DNA of 64,000 nucleotides from an uncultured beta proteobacterium (GCA_963772865.1 CAVYZA010000023.1:18664-82663); one strand, 5' to 3'; positions 26,643-37,310 are shown, numbered from the stretch's first letter. A program made the numbers and translations. The notes: generated by a model from the letters alone, not told the origin.

Positions 26643-27823
26643 TTAAGCCACCGGCGTCGTATCAGCCGCGGCAGCGGCTTCACCCTTCGCACTCAGCTTG
26701 CGCGAGTTGCGGTCGTCGCGGAACACGATCGGCTTGACGTTGGCCGGCAAGGCCGGTTTCTGCGCCTTGGCCACCACCTCCGTAACGAGGTTGTGGTGCG
26801 GTGACAGGTCGCAGACCGGATCGGTGTTGGTCGCATCGCCCGTGAGCATGAAGGCCTGGCAGCGGCAGCCGCCCAGGTCCTTTTCTTTCTCCGGACAGGT
26901 GCGGCACGGCTCCTTCATCCAGCCGTCGCCCCGATAGGCGTTGAAGCCGGGCGACTCTTCCCAGATCCAGCGCAGGTCGTGATCGCGCACGTTGGGGAAG
27001 GTGAGTCCCGGCAGCATGCGCGCCTCGTGGCACGGCAAGCGCCAGTCCGTCGGCGGTGATGTTGAGGAACGTGGTTGCCCCAGCCGTTCATGCACTTCTT
27101 CGGCCGGTTGGCGTAGTAGTCGGGAACGACGAAGTAGAGCTTCATCTTGTTGCCGACGCGGGCGCGGAACTGGTTGGTGATCTCCTCGGCCCGCACCAGC
27201 TGTTCGTGGCTCGGCAGCAGCTGGTCGCGATTCACCAGCGCCCAGGCGTAGTACTGCGTGTTGGCGAGCTCGACGTGCTCGGCGCCCATCGCCTCGGCCA
27301 TCTCCAGGATCTGCTGGATATGGTCGATGTTCATCCGGTGCAGCACGACGTTGAGCACCATTGGGTAGTCGTACTGCTTGATGAGCTTGGCGACCTTCGA
27401 CTTCAGCTCGAAGGTCTTGGTGCTGGACAGGAAATCGTTCATCTCCCGCGTCGAGTCCTGGAACGAGAGCTGGATCTGGCCTAGTCCTCCTTCCTTGAAC
27501 GCGGCGATGCGCTTCTCGGTCAGCCCGATGCCGGAGGTGATGAGGTTGACGTAGTAGCCGAGCCGGCTCGCTTCCGCGGCCATGATCTCAACATCGTCGC
27601 GCATCAGCGGCTCGCCGCCCGAGAGGCCCAGCTGCACGGCGCCCAGCTCGCGGGCCTGGCGCAACGCGCGCAGCCACTCTTCGGTGGTCAGTTCCGGGCC
27701 GTACTGCGTGTAGTCCGTCGGGTTGTAGCAGAACACGCAGTGCAACGGGCACTTGTACGTGATCTCGGCGTTGACCCAGAGCGGATTACCGATTTTCCTT
27801 GGTTCGGATCCAGCCTTTTCCAT
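26643..27823 (-). CDS. pqqE: PQQ biosynthesis radical SAM protein PqqE (one frameshift near 27065)
   Basis: [18 protein letters not shown] (CxxxCxxC), LGLSGGEPL, and the SPASM region [19 protein letters not shown] in the second frame. Confidence 0.9.
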
Positions 27824-28079
27824 GGGCGATCTCCAAAAATTCCATCACGTCGCCGCGCAGGTCGACTCCGGGGAAGGCCGTTTCCAGTTCCTGCACGATC
27901 TGCTCCGCGCTGCGGGTCCCGTCCAGGCGTTTCATGATCTCGCCGGCGCTGCCCGGCAGCTTGACCATGCCTTCGGGATAGAGCAGGACGAACGACTGCT
28001 GGGCCTCCTCCCATTGGAAGCGGTATTGACGATGTAGTTCCAGCGGCGTCCCGAGCGGAAGAGGAAGGCGTTCGCTCAC
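27786..28079 (-). CDS. pqqD: PQQ biosynthesis peptide chaperone PqqD
   Basis: SD AAGGAG plus GTG 28079. FQWEEAQQSFVLLYPEGMVKLPGSAGEIMKRLDGTRSAEQIV. Position between pqqC and pqqE. Confidence 0.85.
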   Translation of the reverse strand: MSERLPLPLGTPLELHRQYRFQWEEAQQSFVLLYPEGMVKLPGSAGEIMKRLDGTRSAEQIVQELETAFPGVDLRGDVMEFLEIAHGKGWIRTKENR

Positions 28080-28089
28080 GCAGGCTCCT

Positions 28090-28821
28090 TCAGCGCTTGG
28101 GGCCCATGCCCAGGTTGACCTGCATCGAGTCGAGCATCGACCACAGCACGTCGAGCTTGAACTGCAAGATGTCGAGCGCGCGCTCCTGCTGCTCGCGGGT
28201 ACGGTAGTGGTCGAGCGTGAAGTTGAGCGCGAACTGGACGTCGCGGCGCGCCTCGGCCAGGCGCTTACGGAAGTAGAAGTACCCGTCCTTGTCGATCCAC
28301 GGGTAGTGCTCCGGCCAGGTGTCCAGGCGCTTCTGGTGGATCTCGGGCGCGAACAGCTCGGTGAGCGAAGAGGTGACAGCCTCCTGCCAGGGGCGGGTGC
28401 GCCCGAAGTTGATGTAGGCGTCCACCGCGAAGCGCACGCCCGGCAGCACGTGCTTGAGCGAGGTGACGTCTTCGCGCTTGAGCCCGACTGCTTCGGCGAG
28501 ACGCAGCCAGGCTTCGATACCGCCCTCGTCGCCACGCTGGCCGTCGTGGTCGATGATGCGCTGGATCCACTCGCGCCGCACGTCCCGGTCCGGGCAGTTG
28601 GACATGATCGCCGCGTCCTTCAGCGGAATCGCGGTCTGGTAATAGAAGCGATTGATCACCCAGCCCTGAACTTGCTCCTTGGTGCAGCCCCCGCCGTTCA
28701 TGGCGATGTGGAACGGGTGATAGATGTGATAGCGGCTGCCCTTGGCGCGCAGCTGTGCCTCGAATTCCTCGCGGGTCCAGGGCTTCTCACCCCCGCGTTG
28801 TACGTTTTCTGGTGCGCCCAT
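28090..28821 (-). CDS. pqqC: pyrroloquinoline-quinone synthase PqqC
   Basis: Intact 243-aa ORF: [33 protein letters not shown]. Confidence 0.92.
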
Positions 28822-28842: not shown

Positions 28843-29758
28843 TTACAGCTCGATGTCCATGCCGTCGTAGGCGACTTCGATCCCCGCGCGCGCCAGCTGC
28901 GCGCGCTCGGGCGAATCCTCATTCAGGATGGGATTGGTGTTGTTGATGTGGATCAAGATTTTGCGCTTGGCTTTGAGCGGCTGCAGCACGCTGATCATGC
29001 CGCCCTCGCCGGACTGCGGCAGGTGGCCGATGTCGCGCGCGCGCTTGCTGGAGATGCCCAGGCCCACCATCTCGTCGTCGGTCCAGAAGGTCCCGTCCAC
29101 CATCACCGCGTCGGCCTGAGCGAGCAACGGCTGCAGGTGCGGCTCGATTTCGCCCAGCCCGGGAGCATAGAACACCTGGTGGCCGGTGCGCGTATCGGTG
29201 ATGCGCATGCCGATGTTGTCGCCCTCGTGCGGGTTGTCGCGATGCGGGGAGTAGGGCGGCGCCTTGCTCTTGAGCGCCACGCTGGTGAAGCGCAGATGCT
29301 CGATGCCGTCGACCGCGAAGTCGTTGCCGGGCTCGATCGGGAGGCGATGCCAGTTGACGCGGCAGTAGTGATTCAGGATGTGGAACAGCGGATTGCCGGT
29401 GGTCAGATCCTCGTGGACCATGTCGGTGCACCAGATCTCCAGCGGCTTGCCCTCGCGCAGCATCAGCAGGCCGGTGGTGTGGTCGATCTGGCCGTCGACC
29501 AGGACGATGGCGCGGATGCCGGTGTCGCGGATCCCGCGGCCGGGCTGCAGGGCGGGGAAGCCCTTGATCTGGGCGAGCACGTCGGGCGAGGCGTTGAACA
29601 GCACCCAGTCGACGCCGTTGCTCGACACCGCGATCGAGGATTGCGTGCGGGGCAGCGGCGCGAATGCTGCCCTTGCGCACACCGTCGCAATTACGGCAGT
29701 TGCAGTTCCATTGCGGGAAACCGCCGCCCGCTGCAGCTCCGAGGACGCGAATGCGCAT
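28843..29758 (-). CDS. pqqB: PQQ biosynthesis protein PqqB (one frameshift near 29660)
   Basis: [24 protein letters not shown] in one frame. [41 protein letters not shown] in the other. Confidence 0.9.
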
Positions 29759-29785
29759 GAGTCAGGTTTTGTGTAGCCCAATAAC

Positions 29786-29816
29786 GACGAAAGCCCCAGC
29801 GATCGGGGCTTTCGTC
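29786..29816 (-). terminator. stem-loop between pqqA and pqqB (attenuator or partial terminator)
   Basis: GACGAAAGCCCC-N7-GGGGCTTTCGTC: a 12-bp perfect stem 17 nt after the pqqA stop. Confidence 0.55.
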
Positions 29817-29832: not shown

Positions 29833-29904
29833 TTAGCGGTTGTAGATGTACATCGTCACTTCGAAGCCGAAGCGCATTTCGGTGAATTCAGGCTTGGTCC
29901 ACAT
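29833..29904 (-). CDS. pqqA: PQQ precursor peptide PqqA (23 aa), copy 1
   Basis: Read by hand; not in the ORF track. GGAGAAGACT-ATG, then [23 protein letters not shown] with the conserved E-x3-Y (EVTMY), directly upstream of pqqB. Confidence 0.9.
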
Positions 29905-30098
29905 AGTCTTCTCCAGAAAAGATATGGGTTATCATTTGCGATTGCGGTCGATGCCGCTGGCCACGATCGCCTCGAGGGAGCCGGTTGCTTGACCTCGAGC
30001 CACCTGCACCGGCCCAAAGTACAAACCAATCAACCGCGCTCTCACGTATTGTCCGTGACGGCCGTGCGGGGTTCACACAGCAATATCAGCAATTGCGG

Positions 30099-30115
30099 CT
30101 CATGATTTTCATGAG
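30099..30115. promoter_or_regulatory. 17-bp palindrome CTCATGAAAATCATGAG (minus-strand reading) upstream of pqqA copy 1
   Basis: The plus strand reads CTCATGATTTTCATGAG. Its reverse complement is identical to the site at 35232..35248. It lies about 195 nt upstream of pqqA copy 1, in the pqqA/tonB divergent region. Confidence 0.5.
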
Positions 30116-30223
30116 ATTGTGACACGCAGGCGGGGGCTGCTGTGTCTATCAGCTATCCCGGCAAACTGCCGAAATTGAATCTGTACCCCGTGTGCGCAGT
30201 CCATGCCATGAACACTTCAACCG

Positions 30224-31825
30224 TTGCACATCGTGTCGACCGCCACCACTGCCATTGATCCCTTCTTCCCGAACGGCTCGCTGCAGCCGTGGTACCAGGA
30301 ACGGCCCCTGGTGGTGGCGTTCGTGGTGTCGGTCTTGCTGCACGCATTGGCACTCCTGTTCCTGCCGGGCCTGCGGCCGCAGTTGCCTGAGGAGAAGACG
30401 CTGACGGTGGAGCTGGCCCCGGCGCAGCTCGAGCCAGCTCCGACGCCGGCCCGCGAGCCGGAGACGCGCAAGCCGGCGCCCAAGCCTGTCGCACCGCAGC
30501 GTCCGCAGCTTGTACAGCGGGCCACTCCCACGCCGCAACCGCAGCAGCGACGGCCTGAACCCCAGCCTCAGCCGGTGCCGATACAGGCGACACCGCAAAT
30601 CACTGCGCCGCCCACGCAGCCGGTGGAGCCGGTCGCACGCGTGGAGCGCCCGGAACTGCGGCAGGAGCCGAGGGTGCAGCCGCAGGCGCGTCCGGCGCCA
30701 CGACCGGAACAGCCACCGGTCCAGCGTTCTGAGCCGCGCATCGAGCCGCGGCGCGACGTGCCCGTTGCCGCGCCCCAGCCCCGGCCGGAGATTGCGCCTC
30801 CCGTAGAGCGCTCCACACCCAAGATCGAACCGCGCGCTGAACCACGGCCGGAGGTGCGTCCGGAGCCACGCATCCAGCCTCAGATTCAGCAGCAGGTGAT
30901 GGCGGTCCCCACGCCCCCGAATGCTCGTCCTGACCTGCAGGCTGAGCCACCCCGGCCGGAGCCGCGGGCCGAGACCTCCAGGGTGCAGCCACGCCTCGAG
31001 CCGAGCCCACAGGCCCGCCCCGAGCCACGCCCGCAACCACAGGTGAGTCCAGTGGCGCCGCCGGTTGCGCGTACCGAGCCGCAAATTGAGAACCGGCGGC
31101 CAGAGCCGCGCGTCGATGTCGCGCGCGCTGAGCCACGCGTCGAGCCGCAGCCCCAGGTGCGTCCCGAGCCGCGCCCGCAGCAGCCGGTCAGCCCTGCAGC
31201 GGCGCCTGTCGCGCGCGCGGAGCCGCGCGTCGAACCGACGCGGGAGGCGCCTTCTGTCGGAGTACCCAGTCAACCGAAGGCCGAGGTGACCCCGGTACCG
31301 CGCGCAGAGCCGACGATCCAGCCGCGCCCTGCCGCTGCCCCGGTCCAGCCGGTGCAGCGTTCACAGGCCGCTGTTGCGCCGCCGACCGCGGAACCGGCGC
31401 CGGTGGAAGCGGCTCCCGGGCCCCCCCGTCCTGTTACCGCCCCGGTGTCGGCGGCCCCGCCGGCGCCGCCACTCAGACCCAGCGTTCCGAAAGAGCGACC
31501 CAACAACGATGCGGACGCCATCTCACGCTTTGCACTGGAGATCCAGTCGCGCGTGGGGCGCCTCGTGAAGGATCGCGGTGACGCCGCGTATCCACGGCTG
31601 GCGCGCGATCGGCGCTGGGAAGGTACCAGCCACGTGCGCGTGGAGTTCATGCCCGGCGGCAAGGTCAAGAGCATCGCGGTCAACACCAGCAGCGGCTATG
31701 CGGTGCTGGACCAGCGCGCGCTCGAGATGGTGAAGGAAGTCATGCCGAAGGTACCCGACGAGCTGCGCGACCGCGAGTTCTCGGTGCGCTTCCCGATCGT
31801 GTTCAAGCTGGTGGAAAAGCGCTAG
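30224..31825 (+). CDS. TonB-family energy transducer with very long Pro-rich spacer
   Basis: N-terminal TM segment VVAFVVSVLLHALALLFLPG. About 350 aa of EPRP/PQP-type repeats. C-terminal TonB domain YPRLARDRRWEGTSHVRVEFMPGGKVKSIAVNTSSGYAVLDQRALEMVK. Non-ATG start. Confidence 0.8.
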   Translation: MHIVSTATTAIDPFFPNGSLQPWYQERPLVVAFVVSVLLHALALLFLPGLRPQLPEEKTLTVELAPAQLEPAPTPAREPETRKPAPKPVAPQRPQLVQRATPTPQPQQRRPEPQPQPVPIQATPQITAPPTQPVEPVARVERPELRQEPRVQPQARPAPRPEQPPVQRSEPRIEPRRDVPVAAPQPRPEIAPPVERSTPKIEPRAEPRPEVRPEPRIQPQIQQQVMAVPTPPNARPDLQAEPPRPEPRAETSRVQPRLEPSPQARPEPRPQPQVSPVAPPVARTEPQIENRRPEPRVDVARAEPRVEPQPQVRPEPRPQQPVSPAAAPVARAEPRVEPTREAPSVGVPSQPKAEVTPVPRAEPTIQPRPAAAPVQPVQRSQAAVAPPTAEPAPVEAAPGPPRPVTAPVSAAPPAPPLRPSVPKERPNNDADAISRFALEIQSRVGRLVKDRGDAAYPRLARDRRWEGTSHVRVEFMPGGKVKSIAVNTSSGYAVLDQRALEMVKEVMPKVPDELRDREFSVRFPIVFKLVEKR

Positions 31826-31840
31826 CCAGCAACCCCGACG

Positions 31841-32782
31841 ATGGAAGACCTCTATCCGCCGATTGAGCCGGCGCAAAGCGGATGGCTCGAGGTTGGAGAC
31901 GGTCACCGCCTGTACTTCGAGGTGTGCGGCAACCAGCAGGGCGCGCCGGTCCTGTTCCTGCACGGTGGCCCCGGCAGCAGTACCAATCCCGGTCACCGCC
32001 GCTTCTTCGACCCGTCCTTCTATCGCATCGTCCTGTTCGATCAGCGCGGCTGCGGCCGGTCGACGCCGAGTGGCGAGATCCGCGCCAATACGACCGCGGA
32101 CTTGCTGGAAGACATCGAGCGCCTGCGCCAGCACCTGGGCGTGGAGCGCTGGCTGTTGTTCGGCGGATCGTGGGGGAGCACGCTGGCGTTGGCTTACGCT
32201 CAGGCGCATCCGCAGCGCGTGCGCGGCCTGGTCCTGCGCGGGGTGTTCTTGGCCACGGACGCCGAGGTGGCGTGGTTCGTCGAGGGGCTCCGACACTTCC
32301 TGCCGGAGGCGTGGGAGGCGCTCACGCGTGGCGTCCCGCAGCCGAGTTGTGAAGGCCTGATCGCGCACTACCACGAGGCGGTCGTACGCGGGGACATGTC
32401 GGCGGCGCAGCGCTGGAACGCGTACGAGAATGCGACGATGGCCGTGGGCGAGGCGGGATCGAGCGCGGCCGCGCCGCCCAGCCCCGAGTTGCTCGCGCGC
32501 GTGCGCGTGCAGCTGCACTACCTGGCCTCTCACTGCTTCCTCGAGCCCGACCAGTTGATGCGCGACTTGTCCCGCATCACGCACCTGGCCGCCGTCATCG
32601 TGCAGGGCCGCCGCGATCTGGCCTGCCCACCGGTCACGGCGTACACTCTGGCGCAAGCGTGGCCGGCAGCGCACTGGTGGATGGTGGAGGAGGCCGGCCA
32701 CTCGGCCATGCACCCGGCGCTGCGCGCGGCGCTGGTACGTGCGACCGAAGAGTTCAAGGCCGTTCTGCGCCCTCCGTCATGA
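31841..32782 (+). CDS. pip: prolyl aminopeptidase (proline iminopeptidase)
   Basis: Intact 313 aa: LYPPIEP, LHGGPGSS, DQRGCGRSTP, GGSWGSTLALAYAQAHP. Confidence 0.88.
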   Translation: MEDLYPPIEPAQSGWLEVGDGHRLYFEVCGNQQGAPVLFLHGGPGSSTNPGHRRFFDPSFYRIVLFDQRGCGRSTPSGEIRANTTADLLEDIERLRQHLGVERWLLFGGSWGSTLALAYAQAHPQRVRGLVLRGVFLATDAEVAWFVEGLRHFLPEAWEALTRGVPQPSCEGLIAHYHEAVVRGDMSAAQRWNAYENATMAVGEAGSSAAAPPSPELLARVRVQLHYLASHCFLEPDQLMRDLSRITHLAAVIVQGRRDLACPPVTAYTLAQAWPAAHWWMVEEAGHSAMHPALRAALVRATEEFKAVLRPPS

Positions 32783-34518
32783 GCCTGCGGGTCCGTCTCA
32801 ACCTGATCATCACCGCGCTGATCGCGCTGTTCACCCTGGTGACCGGCAAGATCATCGTCGACGATATGCGCAACTCCATCCGCGAAGAGATCGAAGCGGG
32901 CACGCGCGTGACCATGCAGCTGTTGACCGCCGTGCTCTATGAAAGCGATCTCGCACGCCAGCGCACCGGGCGCGAGCACGTGCTGCTGCCGTTCCTGGAG
33001 AATCTGGGGCGGGTGCGAGCGCATGAGATCGCCTTTTACGACGCCGCGGGCGGGCTGGTGTACCGCTCGCCTCCACCGGTCTACAAGGCCGGACGCGCAG
33101 CGCCCGCCTGGTTCACGCGCGTGGTTGGACCCGCACTGCCCGAAGTCGAGCTGAAGACCGGCGAGGGCCGCGTGTTGATCACGCCGGATCCCTCGCGCGC
33201 CATCCTGGATGCGTGGGACGACTTGAGCCGCCTCGCGTGGCTGCTGGTCGGATTCCTGCTGGTCCTCAATCTCGCAGTATTCTTTCTGCTTGGGCGCTCG
33301 CTGCGGCCGGTGCGCACGATTCTGTCCGGCCTGTCGCAGATGGAGCAAGGACGCTACCATGTGCGCCTGCCGGCGTTCGCCTTGCCGGAGTTCGACTCGA
33401 TCGGTCAGACTTTCAACCGCATGGCCGACGCGCTGGAGGAGAGCCATGCAGAAAACCAGCGGCTCGCGCTGGTGACCAAGCAGTCCAGCGACGCCATCAT
33501 GATCCACGATCTGGAGGGCAACATCTCGTTCTGGAACCCGGCCGCGGAGCGCCTGTTCGGTTATCGGGCGGAGGCGATCGTGGGGCGGTCGGCACGCCTG
33601 CTCACGCCGCCGGACCTGGAAGCCGAGCTGTCGGAGAATCTGGCGACCATTCAGGCCGGCGCGGTGATCGAGAACCTGGAGACGCGGCGAGTCGCGCAAG
33701 ACGGCCGTGTCGTGGAGGTCGCGCTGTCGGCGGCGCCGCTGGTCGATCCGGCCAGCAGCGAGGTGATCGGCGAGATCTGCAGCATGCGCGACATCACCGA
33801 GCACAAGCGCGCGCAGCAAACGGAAGCCGAGCTGGAGCAGAATCGCCGCTTCACCCAGGTGATCCAGACCCGGCTGGAGGAGGAGCGGCGGGTGATCGCG
33901 CGCGAGCTGCACGACGAGATGGGCCAGAGCGTGACGGCGATCCGCACGATCGGCGCCGCCATCGCCAACCGCACCGAGGGCAGCGACCCGCAGATCCATG
34001 CCAACGCCCGCACCATCGTGCAGGTGGCGGGGCACCTGTACGACGTGGTGCACGGCATCATCCGCCAGCTGCGGCCCAGCGCGCTGGACCATCTCGGCCT
34101 GCAGGATGCGCTGGAGGGCTGGGTCGAGACGTGGCGCACCCGCTATCCGGACGTCGCCGTGGACTTGACCCTGGAGGGCGAGCTGAGCGGTCTCGGCGAG
34201 ACGGTGAACATCACCGTCTACCGGATCGTCCAGGAGTGCCTGACCAACGTGGTCCGGCATGCGGGCGCGAATCGCGCTCAGATCAGCGTGCGGCGCACGG
34301 CCGAAGCGCTCGAGGTGCTCGTGCGCGACAACGGTCGCGGCCTGGGCGAGCGCAACGCCAACGAAGCGGCCCGTTTCGGCCTGATGGGCATGCGTGAGCG
34401 CGTCCAGGCCCTGCACGGCGAGTTCGAGCTGCTCACGCAGCCGGGTGCCGGGCTGAGCGTGCGGGCTCGGATCCCGCTCGTCGAGGCCGGGTCCGCGCAA
34501 CCCGCTGCCGCGCACTGA
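32779..34518 (+). CDS. sensor histidine kinase (TM-HAMP-PAS-HisKA_3-HATPase)
   Basis: ATG overlaps the pip stop (ATGA). PAS region: SSDAIMIHDLEGNISFWNPAAERLFGY. HisKA_3: RVIARELHDEMGQSVTAI. HATPase: NVVRHAGA, DNGRGL, GLMGMRERV. Confidence 0.85.
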   Translation: MSLRVRLNLIITALIALFTLVTGKIIVDDMRNSIREEIEAGTRVTMQLLTAVLYESDLARQRTGREHVLLPFLENLGRVRAHEIAFYDAAGGLVYRSPPPVYKAGRAAPAWFTRVVGPALPEVELKTGEGRVLITPDPSRAILDAWDDLSRLAWLLVGFLLVLNLAVFFLLGRSLRPVRTILSGLSQMEQGRYHVRLPAFALPEFDSIGQTFNRMADALEESHAENQRLALVTKQSSDAIMIHDLEGNISFWNPAAERLFGYRAEAIVGRSARLLTPPDLEAELSENLATIQAGAVIENLETRRVAQDGRVVEVALSAAPLVDPASSEVIGEICSMRDITEHKRAQQTEAELEQNRRFTQVIQTRLEEERRVIARELHDEMGQSVTAIRTIGAAIANRTEGSDPQIHANARTIVQVAGHLYDVVHGIIRQLRPSALDHLGLQDALEGWVETWRTRYPDVAVDLTLEGELSGLGETVNITVYRIVQECLTNVVRHAGANRAQISVRRTAEALEVLVRDNGRGLGERNANEAARFGLMGMRERVQALHGEFELLTQPGAGLSVRARIPLVEAGSAQPAAAH

Positions 34519-34530
34519 TGGGGCTGAGCG

Positions 34531-35175
34531 GTGGGTGAGCGGGCCATCCGGGTGATGCTGGTGGACGACCATGCCGTGGTCAGGATGGGCTTTCGCCTCC
34601 TGCTGCAGGGCACCCCCGACATCGAGGTGGCGGCGGAGGCGGACAGCGGGGAGGAAGCGGTCCGGCAGTTCCCGGAGGTACAGCCGGACGTGGTGGTGAT
34701 GGACATCTCCATGCCCGGTATCGGCGGGCTCGAGGCGATCGGCCGCATCCTGGCACGCCAGCCGGCGGCGCGTGTGCTGGTTCTGTCCGCGCATGAGGAC
34801 GCGATGCACGCGCGGCGGGTGCTCAAGGCGGGAGCGGCCGGATACCTCACCAAACGCAGCGCCGCGGAGGCACTGATTCAGGCGATCCGTCAGGTCGCCC
34901 AGGGCAAGACGTTCCTCGAAGGCAGCATCGCTCAGCAGCTCGCCATGCAGCAGCTCTCCGGTGAGCAAGGCCCGGTGGATATGCTGAGCGAAAAGGAGTT
35001 CAAAGTCTTTCTGGCGCTGGCCGAAGGACAGTCGGTGGCGGAAATTGCCGAGGTCATGTCGCTGAGCCCGCGCACCATCGGCACCCATCTGTACAACATC
35101 AAGCAGAAGCTGGGCGCCTCGAACCAGGCCGAACTGGCGATCATCGCCATCCGTGCCGGTCTGGTTCACCCGTGA
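34531..35175 (+). CDS. NarL/FixJ-family (LuxR-type HTH) response regulator
   Basis: IRVMLVDDHAVVR, VVVMDISMPG, LSEKEFKVFLALAEGQSVAEIAEVMSLSPRTIGTHLYNIKQKLG. Confidence 0.88.
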   Translation: MGERAIRVMLVDDHAVVRMGFRLLLQGTPDIEVAAEADSGEEAVRQFPEVQPDVVVMDISMPGIGGLEAIGRILARQPAARVLVLSAHEDAMHARRVLKAGAAGYLTKRSAAEALIQAIRQVAQGKTFLEGSIAQQLAMQQLSGEQGPVDMLSEKEFKVFLALAEGQSVAEIAEVMSLSPRTIGTHLYNIKQKLGASNQAELAIIAIRAGLVHP

Positions 35176-35231
35176 ATAGCGCCTGCCGGCGCGCGGTTGC
35201 TGCGCCGCAATGTCAGCAAACAGGCGCGGAT

Positions 35232-35248
35232 CTCATGAAAATCATGAG
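35232..35248. promoter_or_regulatory. 17-bp palindrome CTCATGAAAATCATGAG upstream of pqqA copy 2
   Basis: Identical to the reverse complement of 30099..30115. About 120 nt upstream of pqqA copy 2. Confidence 0.5.
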
Positions 35249-35368
35249 GCACGAATCAGCGATTTGCGCTGGCCGCCACGCCTGCCGATCTGGAGAATGA
35301 CCCCTGAAGCAAAGCAACACCCCCGATCCGAGGACTGTTGTTTACCCCTACCAATGAGGAGAGACGCT

Positions 35369-35440
35369 ATGTGGACCAAGCCTGAATTCACCGAAATGCG
35401 CTTCGGCTTCGAAGTGACGATGTACATCTACAACCGCTAA
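35369..35440 (+). CDS. pqqA: PQQ precursor peptide PqqA (23 aa), copy 2 (orphan)
   Basis: GAGGAGAGACGCT-ATG, then [23 protein letters not shown]. The 72 nt are identical to the reverse complement of 29833..29904. A strong terminator follows. Confidence 0.88.
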   Translation: MWTKPEFTEMRFGFEVTMYIYNR

Positions 35441-35460
35441 CCGCGGACTGTAGTGACCAG

Positions 35461-35488
35461 AAGGGCTGCCGCAGGCAGCCCTTTTTGT
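35461..35488 (+). terminator. rho-independent terminator after pqqA copy 2
   Basis: AAGGGCTGCC-GCA-GGCAGCCCTT followed by TTTGTTTG. Confidence 0.8.
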
Positions 35489-35622
35489 TTGTCCGTGCGG
35501 GGATCTGCTGCTGCTCCAGACGCGCGGCCGCCGCTCGCGTCGTCAACGAGGGCAGCCTGCGACGCCGCACAGACAGTTTGCTACGATAGCGCACGGACAA
35601 CCCGCACAGGGCTCGATTCCAT

Positions 35623-36169
35623 ATGGACAACAAGACGGAGCGCGGAGCGCTACCACAACTTCGCCATCTTCCTGCACTGGCTGCTCGCGATCGGTGTCTT
35701 CGTGATGATCGGCCTGGGCTGGTATATGACCGGCATCCCCAAGGGAACCCCCGATCGCGCCTTCTGGTTCAACCTGCACAAGTCGATCGGCGTCACGCTC
35801 GGGGTGCTGGTGCTGATCCGCGTGTGGTGGCGGCTGACCCACAAACCGCCGGCGCTTCCCGCGTCCATGCCAAGCTGGGAGGTGACCGCTGCCAAGATCA
35901 GTCACCGCCTGCTGTATGCCTGTCTGATCATCATGCCGGTGGTTGGCTTCGTCGGCTCCAACTTCACCAAGTACGGCGTCAAGTATTTCGGCATCCCGAT
36001 CGGGCCGTTCTTCGCAGAGAACCAGGCGGTGCGCGATGCGCTGGCGGAAGTGCACGAAATCACCTCGTATGTGCTGGTCGCGGCGATCGTCGTTCATGTC
36101 CTCGCCGCATTCAAGCACCTGGTCCTCGACAAGGACCGCGTCTTCGAACGCATGCTGCCGGGCAGATAA
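35623..36169 (+). CDS. cytochrome b561 family protein (frameshift within the first ~10 codons)
   Basis: ERYHNFAIFLHWLLAIGVFVMIGLGWYM..LHKSIGV..SHRLLYACLIIMPVVG..HEITSYVLVAAIVVHVLAAFKH. ATG 35623 (MDNKT) is out of frame with the body. Confidence 0.75.
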
Positions 36170-36187
36170 AGAGACCGGCGCACCCGC

Positions 36188-37310
36188 CTAGCCGGGTGCG
36201 GGGGAGGCGGAATCTCCAGCCGGGTCGGCGTCCCGCGGGAAAACCACGATGTGGTCGGTTTCGAGCCGCACCCCGATGGCCTGCCCGATCGGGTGGTTGT
36301 GATGGCTGGGCACCAGCGAGAGCACTTCCGACCCGCTGGGCAAGGCGCAGCACGTACAGGATATCCGCGCCGCGGAACGCCTTGCTCAGCACCTGCGCCT
36401 GCAACCGGCTGGAATCGTCGTGCACGACGTCGTCCGGGCGCAGCAGCACGTCGACCAGCAACGGCCGCTCCGAGTGCTTGCCACCGCCGTTCGCGAACGT
36501 AACCTCGCCGGTCAGCACGCCCAGCTCGAGCTCGACCTGATCGGCCGCCGTCACGCGCCCCGGCACGAGCCTGCCCTGGCCGACAAAGTCGGCCACGAAA
36601 CGGTTGCCGGGACGGTGGTAGAGGTTGTAGGCCGTGTCGTACTGTGCGATGCGCCCTGCCTGCATGACGCCGATGCGGTCGGCGAAGGCGAACGCCTCGT
36701 GCTGATCGTGCGTCACCAGCACGGCCGTCGCGCCCTGCGACTTGAGCAGGTTGCGCACTTCCACCGCCAGGCGCTCGCGCAGGTCCACGTCGAGGTTGGA
36801 GAACGGCTCGTCCAGGAGCAGGAGGCGAGGGCGCGGTGCGAGCGCACGGGCCAGCGCCACCCGCTGCTGCTGTCCTCCCGACAGCTCGTGCGGGTACTTG
36901 GCGGCGCAGTCTTCCAGCCCGACCGCTGTCAGCAGCTCGCTGACACGCAGGTCCCGGGCCGCGCGCGCAAGGTGAGTCAGGCCGAAGCCGACGTTGCCGG
37001 CGACACTGAGATGCGGAAACAGTGCGTAGTCCTGGAATACCATGCCGATGCGGCGCTGCTCGGGCGGCAGCTGGAAGCCGGGCCGGCTCACCACCTGGCC
37101 GTCGAGCAGGATCTCGCCGCCCGTCACGGGCTCGAAGCCTGCCACACAACGCAGCAGCGTGGTCTTGCCGCAGCCACTGGGCCCCAGCAGGCAGGCGATG
37201 TCACCGGCGGACAGCGCGAAGGACAGCGCATCGCAGACGCGCTGCTGGCCGTAGGAATGAGTGAGATCGCGCACCTCGAGCAGCGGCGCGCCGGAGCTGG
37301 GCGGTTGCAT
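36188..37310 (-). CDS. ABC transporter ATP-binding protein (Fe3+/polyamine-import type; frameshift near 36345)
   Basis: LLGPSGCGKTTLLR (Walker A), LSGGQQQRVALARAL, LLLLDEPFSNLD, and the C-terminal TOBE-like part. The last ~50 aa are in another frame and end at TAG 36188. Confidence 0.85.

Follow-up and report, generated by a model that had tools for sequence, protein, structure and literature searches.

The 64,000-nucleotide stretch of DNA analysed here (the window) comes from an uncultured beta proteobacterium (GCA_963772865.1 CAVYZA010000023.1:18664-82663) and carries two identical, inverted copies of pqqA, the precursor gene of pyrroloquinoline quinone (PQQ), on either side of a block that encodes a TonB protein, a proline iminopeptidase and a two-component system. 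We consider it probable that the two genes belong to ancient twin cassettes, kept alike by sequence constraint together with gene conversion and placed under shared operator control by the NarL-type regulator encoded between them. Throughout, G000 denotes this genome (a 4.8-Mb assembly in 38 contigs), A1 and A2 denote pqqA copies 1 and 2, other G numbers denote genomes of relatives, L numbers denote loci taken from relatives, and C numbers denote contigs.

Two identical pqqA genes in inverted orientation

A repeat search of the window recovered a perfect 74-nt inverted repeat, whose arms at 29833-29906 and 35367-35440 are 100% complementary and separated by 5460 nt. The left arm contains A1 (29833..29904, minus strand), which heads pqqBCDE and adjoins pqqB in all relatives, and the right arm contains A2 (35369..35440, plus strand), which lies 193 nt past the response-regulator gene, a position that is likewise kept in all relatives. 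Each copy is an intact open reading frame (ORF) of 23 codons with the same translation, scores 48.9 bits with the PqqA equivalog model TIGR02107 (cut-off 20), and contains the Glu-X3-Tyr cross-link motif (E15-V-T-M-Y19), so that both belong to the PqqA family (TIGR02107 / PF08042). No pqqA copies besides these two were found in the 4.8-Mb assembly.

The sequence-only reading that this analysis followed up had described two identical inverted pqqA genes bracketing a long TonB, a proline iminopeptidase, a HAMP-PAS-HisKA_3 kinase and a NarL-type regulator, and the perfect repeat, the translations and the genes found between the arms agree with that description. It had also placed the limits of identity exactly at the start and stop codons. 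This is accurate at the 3' end, where the shared stretch stops precisely at the stop codon, and needs correction at the 5' end, where 2 nt upstream of the ATG match in addition to the 72-nt ORF.

A shared palindrome, -10-like box and hairpin

The same 17-bp palindrome, CTCATGAAAATCATGAG, is present in the 5' regions of both pqqA genes (chance expectation 0.06), at 30099..30115, 194 nt upstream of the A1 ATG, and at 35232..35248, 120 nt upstream of the A2 ATG. These are its only two sites in the 4.8-Mb genome, and we regard them as candidate operators of the NarL-type regulator. Alignments of the A1 and A2 5' regions from 20 genomes contain a common block, CT(C/A)ATGA-N3-TCATGAG, followed by a weakly similar stretch and by GACAAT/GAGAAT 44-45 nt further on. 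In the window the -10-like box of the putative A1 promoter is GACAAT (30048..30053, minus strand), 45 nt downstream of the palindrome and within the GACAAT/GAGAAT column block of the 20-genome alignment; that of the putative A2 promoter is GAGAAT (35293..35298, plus strand), 44 nt downstream of the palindrome and within the ACAAT/AGAAT alignment block. The palindrome has a 7-3-7 form, stands at activator distance from the -10-like box and is kept in 20 or more genomes. A sigma-54 reading of the A2 promoter was rejected by eye, on account of an unsuitable GG/GC spacing and of a regulator that does not belong to the enhancer-binding proteins.

Both genes are followed by a hairpin. In the gap between A1 and pqqB, folding identified a 12-bp GC-rich hairpin (29786..29816, minus strand) that is kept in 19/20 relatives and may be an attenuator or processing structure. 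A hairpin with a T-run follows A2 (35459..35485, plus strand) and is kept in all relatives, whether or not the importer gene pqqU comes next, in line with the terminator that had been proposed there. The earlier statement that the flanks of the two copies are unrelated does not hold, as the palindrome, its distance from a -10-like box and a hairpin beyond the stop codon are common to both copies. The repeating unit appears to be an operator, a promoter, a leader, pqqA and a hairpin, in which only the leaders have diverged.

The palindrome is also found upstream of dispersed third pqqA copies and of tandem copies in relatives. In G019 (L136, G019:C60, 7-832) at least three tandem pqqA cassettes come after the regulator gene, repeating at 369 and 385 nt; every one has its own palindrome, and the coding sequences are identical. 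The contig begins inside the array, which may thus comprise further units. The start of the divergent tonB gene is 117 nt away from the A1 palindrome, which may therefore act on the tonB-pip-kinase-regulator operon as well, pip being the proline iminopeptidase gene. The only other site in G000 with both half-sites intact is TCATGATTGTCATGA, at C12:104910-104924.

Co-occurrence with the two-component system

Co-occurrence was counted in an even sample of the order, comprising 151 genomes, in which a kinase orthologue was defined as a match to the sensor half at E < 1e-40. Kinase orthologues are encoded in 41 genomes and pqqB in 46, with the kinase gene usually within 5 kb of pqqB; the kinase is present in 40/46 pqqB-positive genomes versus 1/105 pqqB-negative genomes (Fisher test, 6e-29). 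Among the pqqB-positive genomes checked, the palindrome stands upstream of pqqA in 36/39 kinase-positive versus 0/5 kinase-negative genomes (Fisher test, 5e-5). A strict composite pattern, consisting of the palindrome, 40-52 nt, ANAAT, 40-170 nt and ATGTGG, was recovered from 19 genomes of 10 genera in this sample, and its reversed control once.

Because kinase, pqqB and palindrome co-occur across the order, the encoded NarL-type regulator is the obvious candidate for the protein that recognizes the palindrome. An action of the two-component system on PQQ production had been put forward as pure speculation; the co-occurrence of these three elements lends it good comparative support, and this regulatory guess is the part of the earlier reading that gains most from the analysis. 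Literature searches for a pqqA operator, or for an orphan pqqA with a two-component system, returned nothing relevant.

Age and orientation of the pqqA pair

A DNA search of 60 relatives found outward-facing pqqA pairs, spaced by 4.9-5.7 kb, in some 20 genomes of this genus as well as three other families, and divergent pairs 4.6-5.6 kb apart are present in families f4, f27, f29 and f32. When the window proteins were mapped onto the fetched loci of relatives, 20/20 had the same order, with A1 heading pqqBCDE on one strand and tonB, pip, kinase and regulator genes leading divergently to A2 on the other, tonB adjoining A1 and the regulator gene adjoining A2. The layout is repeated in L052-L058 and L117, which were reached through pip, and in G025, G055 and G019; complete genomes such as G061 carry the module too. 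Those relatives whose records are named are uncultured Burkholderiales soil metagenome-assembled genomes (MAGs). The comparison of synteny that had been recommended for this locus therefore finds copy 2 present and the orientation of the block constant.

Since the layout recurs in about 25 genomes of the genus and in four or more further families of the order, the pqqA duplication is ancient; by this synteny the pair is shown to be older than the split of several families, and a recent duplication, which had been one of the two explanations offered for the identity, can be taken as excluded. It is hardly credible that pqqA was recently duplicated to a new site, or that an assembly or polishing artefact makes the copies look identical, for the pair with its orthologous flanks (promoter, hairpin and neighbours) is present in more than 20 independent assemblies, short-read MAGs included, and G003 has identical copies too. 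The assembly of G000 is admittedly error-prone, with pqqE, pqqB and both EF-Tu genes frame-shifted, which is the reason to consider such an artefact at all; the errors seen in it are indels, not substitutions. The same recurrence in independent assemblies answers the suspicion that one copy is an assembly duplication.

The orientation of the inner block is fixed among the relatives. In the 151-genome sample a kinase gene within 5 kb of pqqB is always divergent from pqqB, and a single orientation was observed in about 45 genomes with an informative locus, none being inverted. No recombinase family matched any of the four block genes. The 74-nt repeat had suggested that the 5.5-kb segment could invert, with the two copies as recombination arms, and swap the 5' control regions of A1-pqqBCDE and A2. 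The perfect repeat is sufficient in length for RecA-dependent exchange, and both 5' regions lie inside the segment and would hence be exchanged by its inversion. We nevertheless judge such a switch very improbable, given that neither a second orientation among relatives nor a recombinase at the segment was found, and that operator and spacing are alike at both promoters, so that a swap would alter little. The comparative data give inversion no support.

The association of pip with pqq genes is lineage-specific, and 60 pip loci from other taxa had no pqq genes nearby. In L057 (2366-4766), from a record labelled Acidiferrobacterales, pqqEDCB is divergent from pip, which is followed by pqqA, and kinase, regulator and palindrome are absent; one pqqA, the one after pip, was found there by pattern, and the pattern may have missed one adjoining pqqB.

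Constraint on synonymous sites

Fourfold sites of pqqB/C/E, pip, kinase and regulator genes differ between G000 and its relatives at 23-67% (0.23-0.67), and the synonymous codons of pqqA that differ in the same comparison number 0-5 of 19. At the nucleotide level A1 and A2 of G000 are identical to A1 of G024 and to A2 of G020, which are separate species whose neighbouring genes are 23-50% different from those of G000 at fourfold sites. Among 86 pqqA copies from the fetched loci, Glu15 is encoded by GAA in 86/86, Pro5 by CCG in 1/86, and Arg11 by CGT or CGC only. The GC content of pqqA is 49%, compared with 66% for the genome, and its AT-richer codons are kept across families.

As judged from these comparisons, the nucleotide sequence of pqqA is shown to be under unusually strong purifying selection, synonymous sites included. 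Because these sites barely change between species, synonymous identity between the copies is weak evidence of a recent event here. Ordinary codon optimisation was considered as a source of the constraint and does not obviously account for it, GAA and CCT being minority codons both genome-wide and in the EF-Tu genes of G000. The constraint could come from translational selection on a very abundant message, or from a requirement of the RNA itself; in Methylosinus, pqqA was about 40-fold more expressed than pqqB (PMC3615186).

Gene conversion between the copies

If the copies had evolved independently, A1 should be no nearer to its own A2 than to the A2 of other genomes. The mean A1-A2 distance within a genome is 5.2 differences, versus 7.3 when partners are permuted (P about 1e-5), and orthologue distances (6.4 and 6.3) are barely below the distance of between-genome paralogues (6.8). 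Two clades of the genus emerge from the tree of linked proteins. In the first, clade I (G002, G004, G005, G007, G008, G009, G014 and G016), residue 21 is Ala in A1 and Tyr in A2 (Gln in G004), the copies are 6-10 sites apart, and the nearest neighbour of A1 is usually another A1, with G002 and G004 as exceptions; codon 21 seems to have been untouched by conversion in this clade. In clade II (G000, G003, G011, G015 and G020-G024) both copies have Tyr21 and are 0-7 sites apart.

Since the change from GCC to TAC at codon 21 involves two bases and reaches exactly the state of the partner, a single conversion of A1 by A2 at the base of clade II is the economical reading. Copy pairs in the outgroup families are Phe/Phe, Leu/Leu and Ala/Ala at this residue, and the two copies of G023 have three derived states in common. 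The duplication is older than the species compared, and copies within a genome are more alike and share derived states, as in concerted evolution; this pattern supports gene conversion as a long-term process.

The identity in G000 had been ascribed to recent conversion on account of its synonymous sites. Conversion itself stands, over the long term, on the permutation result and on the clade-wide switch from Ala to Tyr. Its recency does not follow, since pqqA is nearly frozen and the very same sequence recurs in A1 of G024 and A2 of G020. One or more very recent conversions in the lineage of G000 are conceivable as the direct cause of the 72/72 identity, and we lean against them. The copies differ at no site in G000 and in G003, both copies having GTC at Val16 in the latter and GTG in the former, when sister species have 2-7 differences; A2 of G000 has a TAA stop codon, typical of A1; and tuf genes offer a precedent for conversion that stops where homology ends (PMC5485169). 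The identity of pqqA between species speaks against this account, as does a simple Poisson calculation with the clade mean of 2.6, under which two zero-difference genomes of eight have a P of about 0.11 with the single ancestral conversion. Position 48, the site shared by the copies of G003, is moreover the most variable one, and C is common there. Further conversion in the lineage of G000 is possible and is not needed for the identity, which we attribute to constraint acting on copies homogenised earlier.

Copy 2 and the PQQ importer gene

A gene for a TonB-dependent receptor of about 750 aa follows A2 on the same strand in 7/21 loci (G003, G004, G021-G024 and G030), which span both clades and an outgroup. 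The receptor of G024 matches 6V81 and 9C4O, structures of Escherichia coli YncD/PqqU, at E = 7e-133; among the relatives, the pqqU orthologue occupies L038 6478-8727 and L039 8652-10922. No pqqU was found in G000, either after A2 (window 35441-35620) or anywhere in the assembly, so that this genome is without the PqqU import module, and pqqU does not follow A2 in G020, G015 and most of clade I. The locus of G000 keeps tonB despite having no pqqU.

Since pqqU follows A2 in loci of both clades and an outgroup, the ancestral locus would have comprised a synthesis arm (A1-pqqBCDE) and an uptake arm (A2-pqqU) under one operator, with a dedicated TonB. G000 appears to have kept the cassette and TonB and lost pqqU, leaving A2 as an apparent orphan that ends in a terminator. 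Synteny of pqqU with pqq genes has been reported in four Burkholderiales genomes (PMC12124388).

Genes of the locus and quality of the assembly

The pqqBCDE genes lie on the minus strand. pqqB (28843..29758, with an MRIRV... start at 29758) scores 362 bits against TIGR02108 over model positions 32-298 only, pqqC (28090..28821) scores 378.7 bits against TIGR02111, and pqqD (27786..28100) scores 107.9 bits against NF002535, all above cut-off. pqqE (26643..27823) encodes a radical-SAM protein and, compared with five relatives, has one extra base near 27039 and another near 27076. An equivalog of PqqF was not found in G000, and ten or more PQQ-propeller ORFs were, a number in keeping with much need for the cofactor.

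Between A1 and A2 four genes are tightly packed on the plus strand. The first (30233..31825) encodes a long TonB paralogue of 530 aa with an SxxxH membrane anchor, a Pro/Glu/Arg-rich spacer of about 380 aa and a TonB_C domain, and is one of five TonB_C genes in G000. It is followed by pip, a prolyl aminopeptidase gene of family S33 (31841..32782; TIGR01249, 321 bits), which is the second such gene of G000, the other copy being on C17. The sensor kinase gene (32779..34518), whose ATG overlaps the pip stop codon (ATGA), encodes two transmembrane segments, an outer domain of about 140 aa, and HAMP, PAS, HisKA_3 and HATPase domains. The NarL/FixJ-type response regulator gene (34531..35175) begins 12 nt further on and encodes REC and a GerE helix-turn-helix, so that kinase and regulator form a HisKA_3-HATPase and REC-GerE pair. 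The best named model for the regulator is UvrY/GacA, under its cut-off, and the protein stays below every equivalog cut-off.

The first 30 or so codons of pqqB (about 29660-29760) are in another frame in the assembly of G000, and both EF-Tu genes (C14:31264-32431 and C14:48337-49526) are broken up over 2-3 frames. Indel errors are evidently numerous in the assembly and probably account for its completeness estimate of 65%. Because the EF-Tu genes are split too, the frameshifts in pqqB and pqqE are most likely assembly errors, and the possibility that pqqE is a pseudogene was rejected on the same grounds; apparent pseudogenes in this genome are in general not to be trusted. The EF-Tu genes on C14 use GGG for 55/91 glycines and TTT for 14/26 phenylalanines, a usage rarely seen in highly expressed genes of GC-rich bacteria. 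Downstream of A2, at 35543-36540 of the window, two long ORFs overlap on opposite strands (191 aa on the minus strand and 305 aa on the plus strand); both are 37-65% conserved in relatives and neither has a Pfam or NCBIfam match.

Discussion

The explanation that we favour regards A1 and A2 as twin copies of one old expression cassette, in which the 17-bp palindromic operator would be followed, after 44-45 nt, by a -10-like box and then by a leader, pqqA and a GC-rich hairpin. The first cassette would drive pqqBCDE, and the second would end the divergent tonB-pip-kinase-regulator operon, having led pqqU in the ancestor as it still does in several relatives. The 72/72 identity would result from constraint acting on copies that had been homogenised by at least one conversion, presumably of A1 by A2 at the base of the clade of G000. 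We suggest that the regulator binds the shared palindrome, whose centre would lie about 60-65 bp upstream of the predicted transcription start, and that, when the membrane kinase perceives its signal, it activates the two cassettes together and probably also the divergent operon to which it belongs. A second pqqA gene would raise the supply of precursor, in keeping with the known surplus of pqqA expression relative to pqqB-E and with the ten or more quinoprotein-like genes of this genome. A role of pip in PqqA trimming is possible, since G000 has no PqqF equivalog and this pip is a second paralogue; Pseudomonas pqq operons include a gene of the prolyl-oligopeptidase family (PMC12997753).

Several observations weigh against this explanation. 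The co-occurrence of palindrome and kinase is partly phylogenetic, with few independent losses, and the genomes counted are not independent by descent; the palindrome could also be the site of a different regulator. A simple scan of both 5' regions for a sigma-70 promoter found none, and the promoter elements described above were recognised by their conservation. Some of the amino-acid co-variation that we attribute to conversion could also have arisen if all precursor copies had been selected in parallel for their fit to a single PqqD/PqqE. As GAA and CCT are not preferred in EF-Tu of G000, codon optimisation offers no obvious source for the synonymous constraint, and the many indel errors in the assembly carry some risk for base-level claims on this genome.

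A more far-reaching proposal, which we regard as rather unlikely and put forward tentatively, is that the locus represents an undescribed PQQ homeostasis regulon in a section of the Betaproteobacteria (GTDB Burkholderiales). The kinase would sense the periplasmic status of PQQ or quinoproteins; the regulator and its palindrome would set the expression of all pqqA copies, of pqqBCDE and of pqqU, the latter energised by the TonB of the locus; pip, as a second prolyl aminopeptidase specific to the locus, would help to trim cross-linked PqqA in these genomes that lack PqqF; and the pqqA ORF, leading both arms, would have a role at the RNA level. If this were true, the frozen AT-rich codons of pqqA, against 66% GC, would reflect an RNA-level role in addition to coding.

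PQQ is a shared cofactor in soil communities, and its control in producers is poorly understood outside Pseudomonas and a few methylotrophs. The locus described here would be a compact control circuit that joins a single operator sequence and one kinase/regulator pair to at least two tiny target genes, kept across many uncultured soil lineages and tied to a PQQ importer in relatives. A more general caution is that very short, highly expressed genes can be nearly frozen, so that identity of paralogues at synonymous sites should not by itself be interpreted as evidence of recent conversion. As first posed, in terms of recent conversion and a possible inversion switch, the finding is largely ordinary, and the locus combines things that are known separately: multi-copy pqqA, control of PQQ metabolism by LuxR-type regulators, and PqqU.

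Comparison with known systems

Multiple pqqA copies are known from methylotrophs. Methylophilaceae have 3-12 copies (PMC4109929), and in Methylosinus trichosporium OB3b pqqA is unlinked from pqqBCDE and highly expressed (PMC3615186). The present locus resembles these in having more than one precursor gene per pqqBCDE set and, by analogy, a short, separately terminated and very abundant transcript; these methylotrophs belong to the same GTDB order as G000, and relatives of G000 have dispersed extra copies with the same palindrome. It differs from them in that A2 stands at a fixed syntenic site, facing the operon across tonB, pip, kinase and regulator genes, and ancestrally leads pqqU. Neither a shared operator nor the A1/A2 layout is described in the literature searched.

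The tufA and tufB genes of Salmonella and E. coli are inverted duplicates that undergo concerted evolution by gene conversion (PMC5485169). A1 and A2 resemble them as old inverted duplicates, nearly identical copies of a highly expressed gene, with tracts bounded by the ends of homology and with purifying selection and conversion acting together. In contrast to the 1.2 kb of the tuf genes, the homology of the pqqA copies extends over only 72-74 nt, so that conversion should be much rarer, and many species keep diverged pqqA copies, with 6-10 differences and Ala/Tyr at residue 21.

Regulators of the LuxR/NarL type control PQQ-dependent alcohol oxidation and the pqq operon in Pseudomonas, namely AgmR/ErbR and PedS2-PedR2 (= ExaDE) (PMC12997753). 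The similarity with the present locus is that of a HisKA_3 kinase and a REC-GerE regulator tied to PQQ metabolism. It differs from the Pseudomonas and enteric regulators in that its regulator is not an orthologue of theirs and the outer sensor domain of its kinase is different; its target, unlike those in Pseudomonas, would be the precursor gene itself, in two or more copies. GacA acts at a palindromic upstream activating sequence before small RNA genes, and the palindrome described here likewise precedes the putative core promoters of genes that are very small and highly expressed. With the PqqU (YncD) system the locus shares the PqqU orthologue that follows A2 in relatives and a gene for a TonB paralogue close by; the published account of pqqU synteny (PMC12124388) makes no mention of paired pqqA cassettes, of the operator or of the two-component system, and these set the present locus apart from it.

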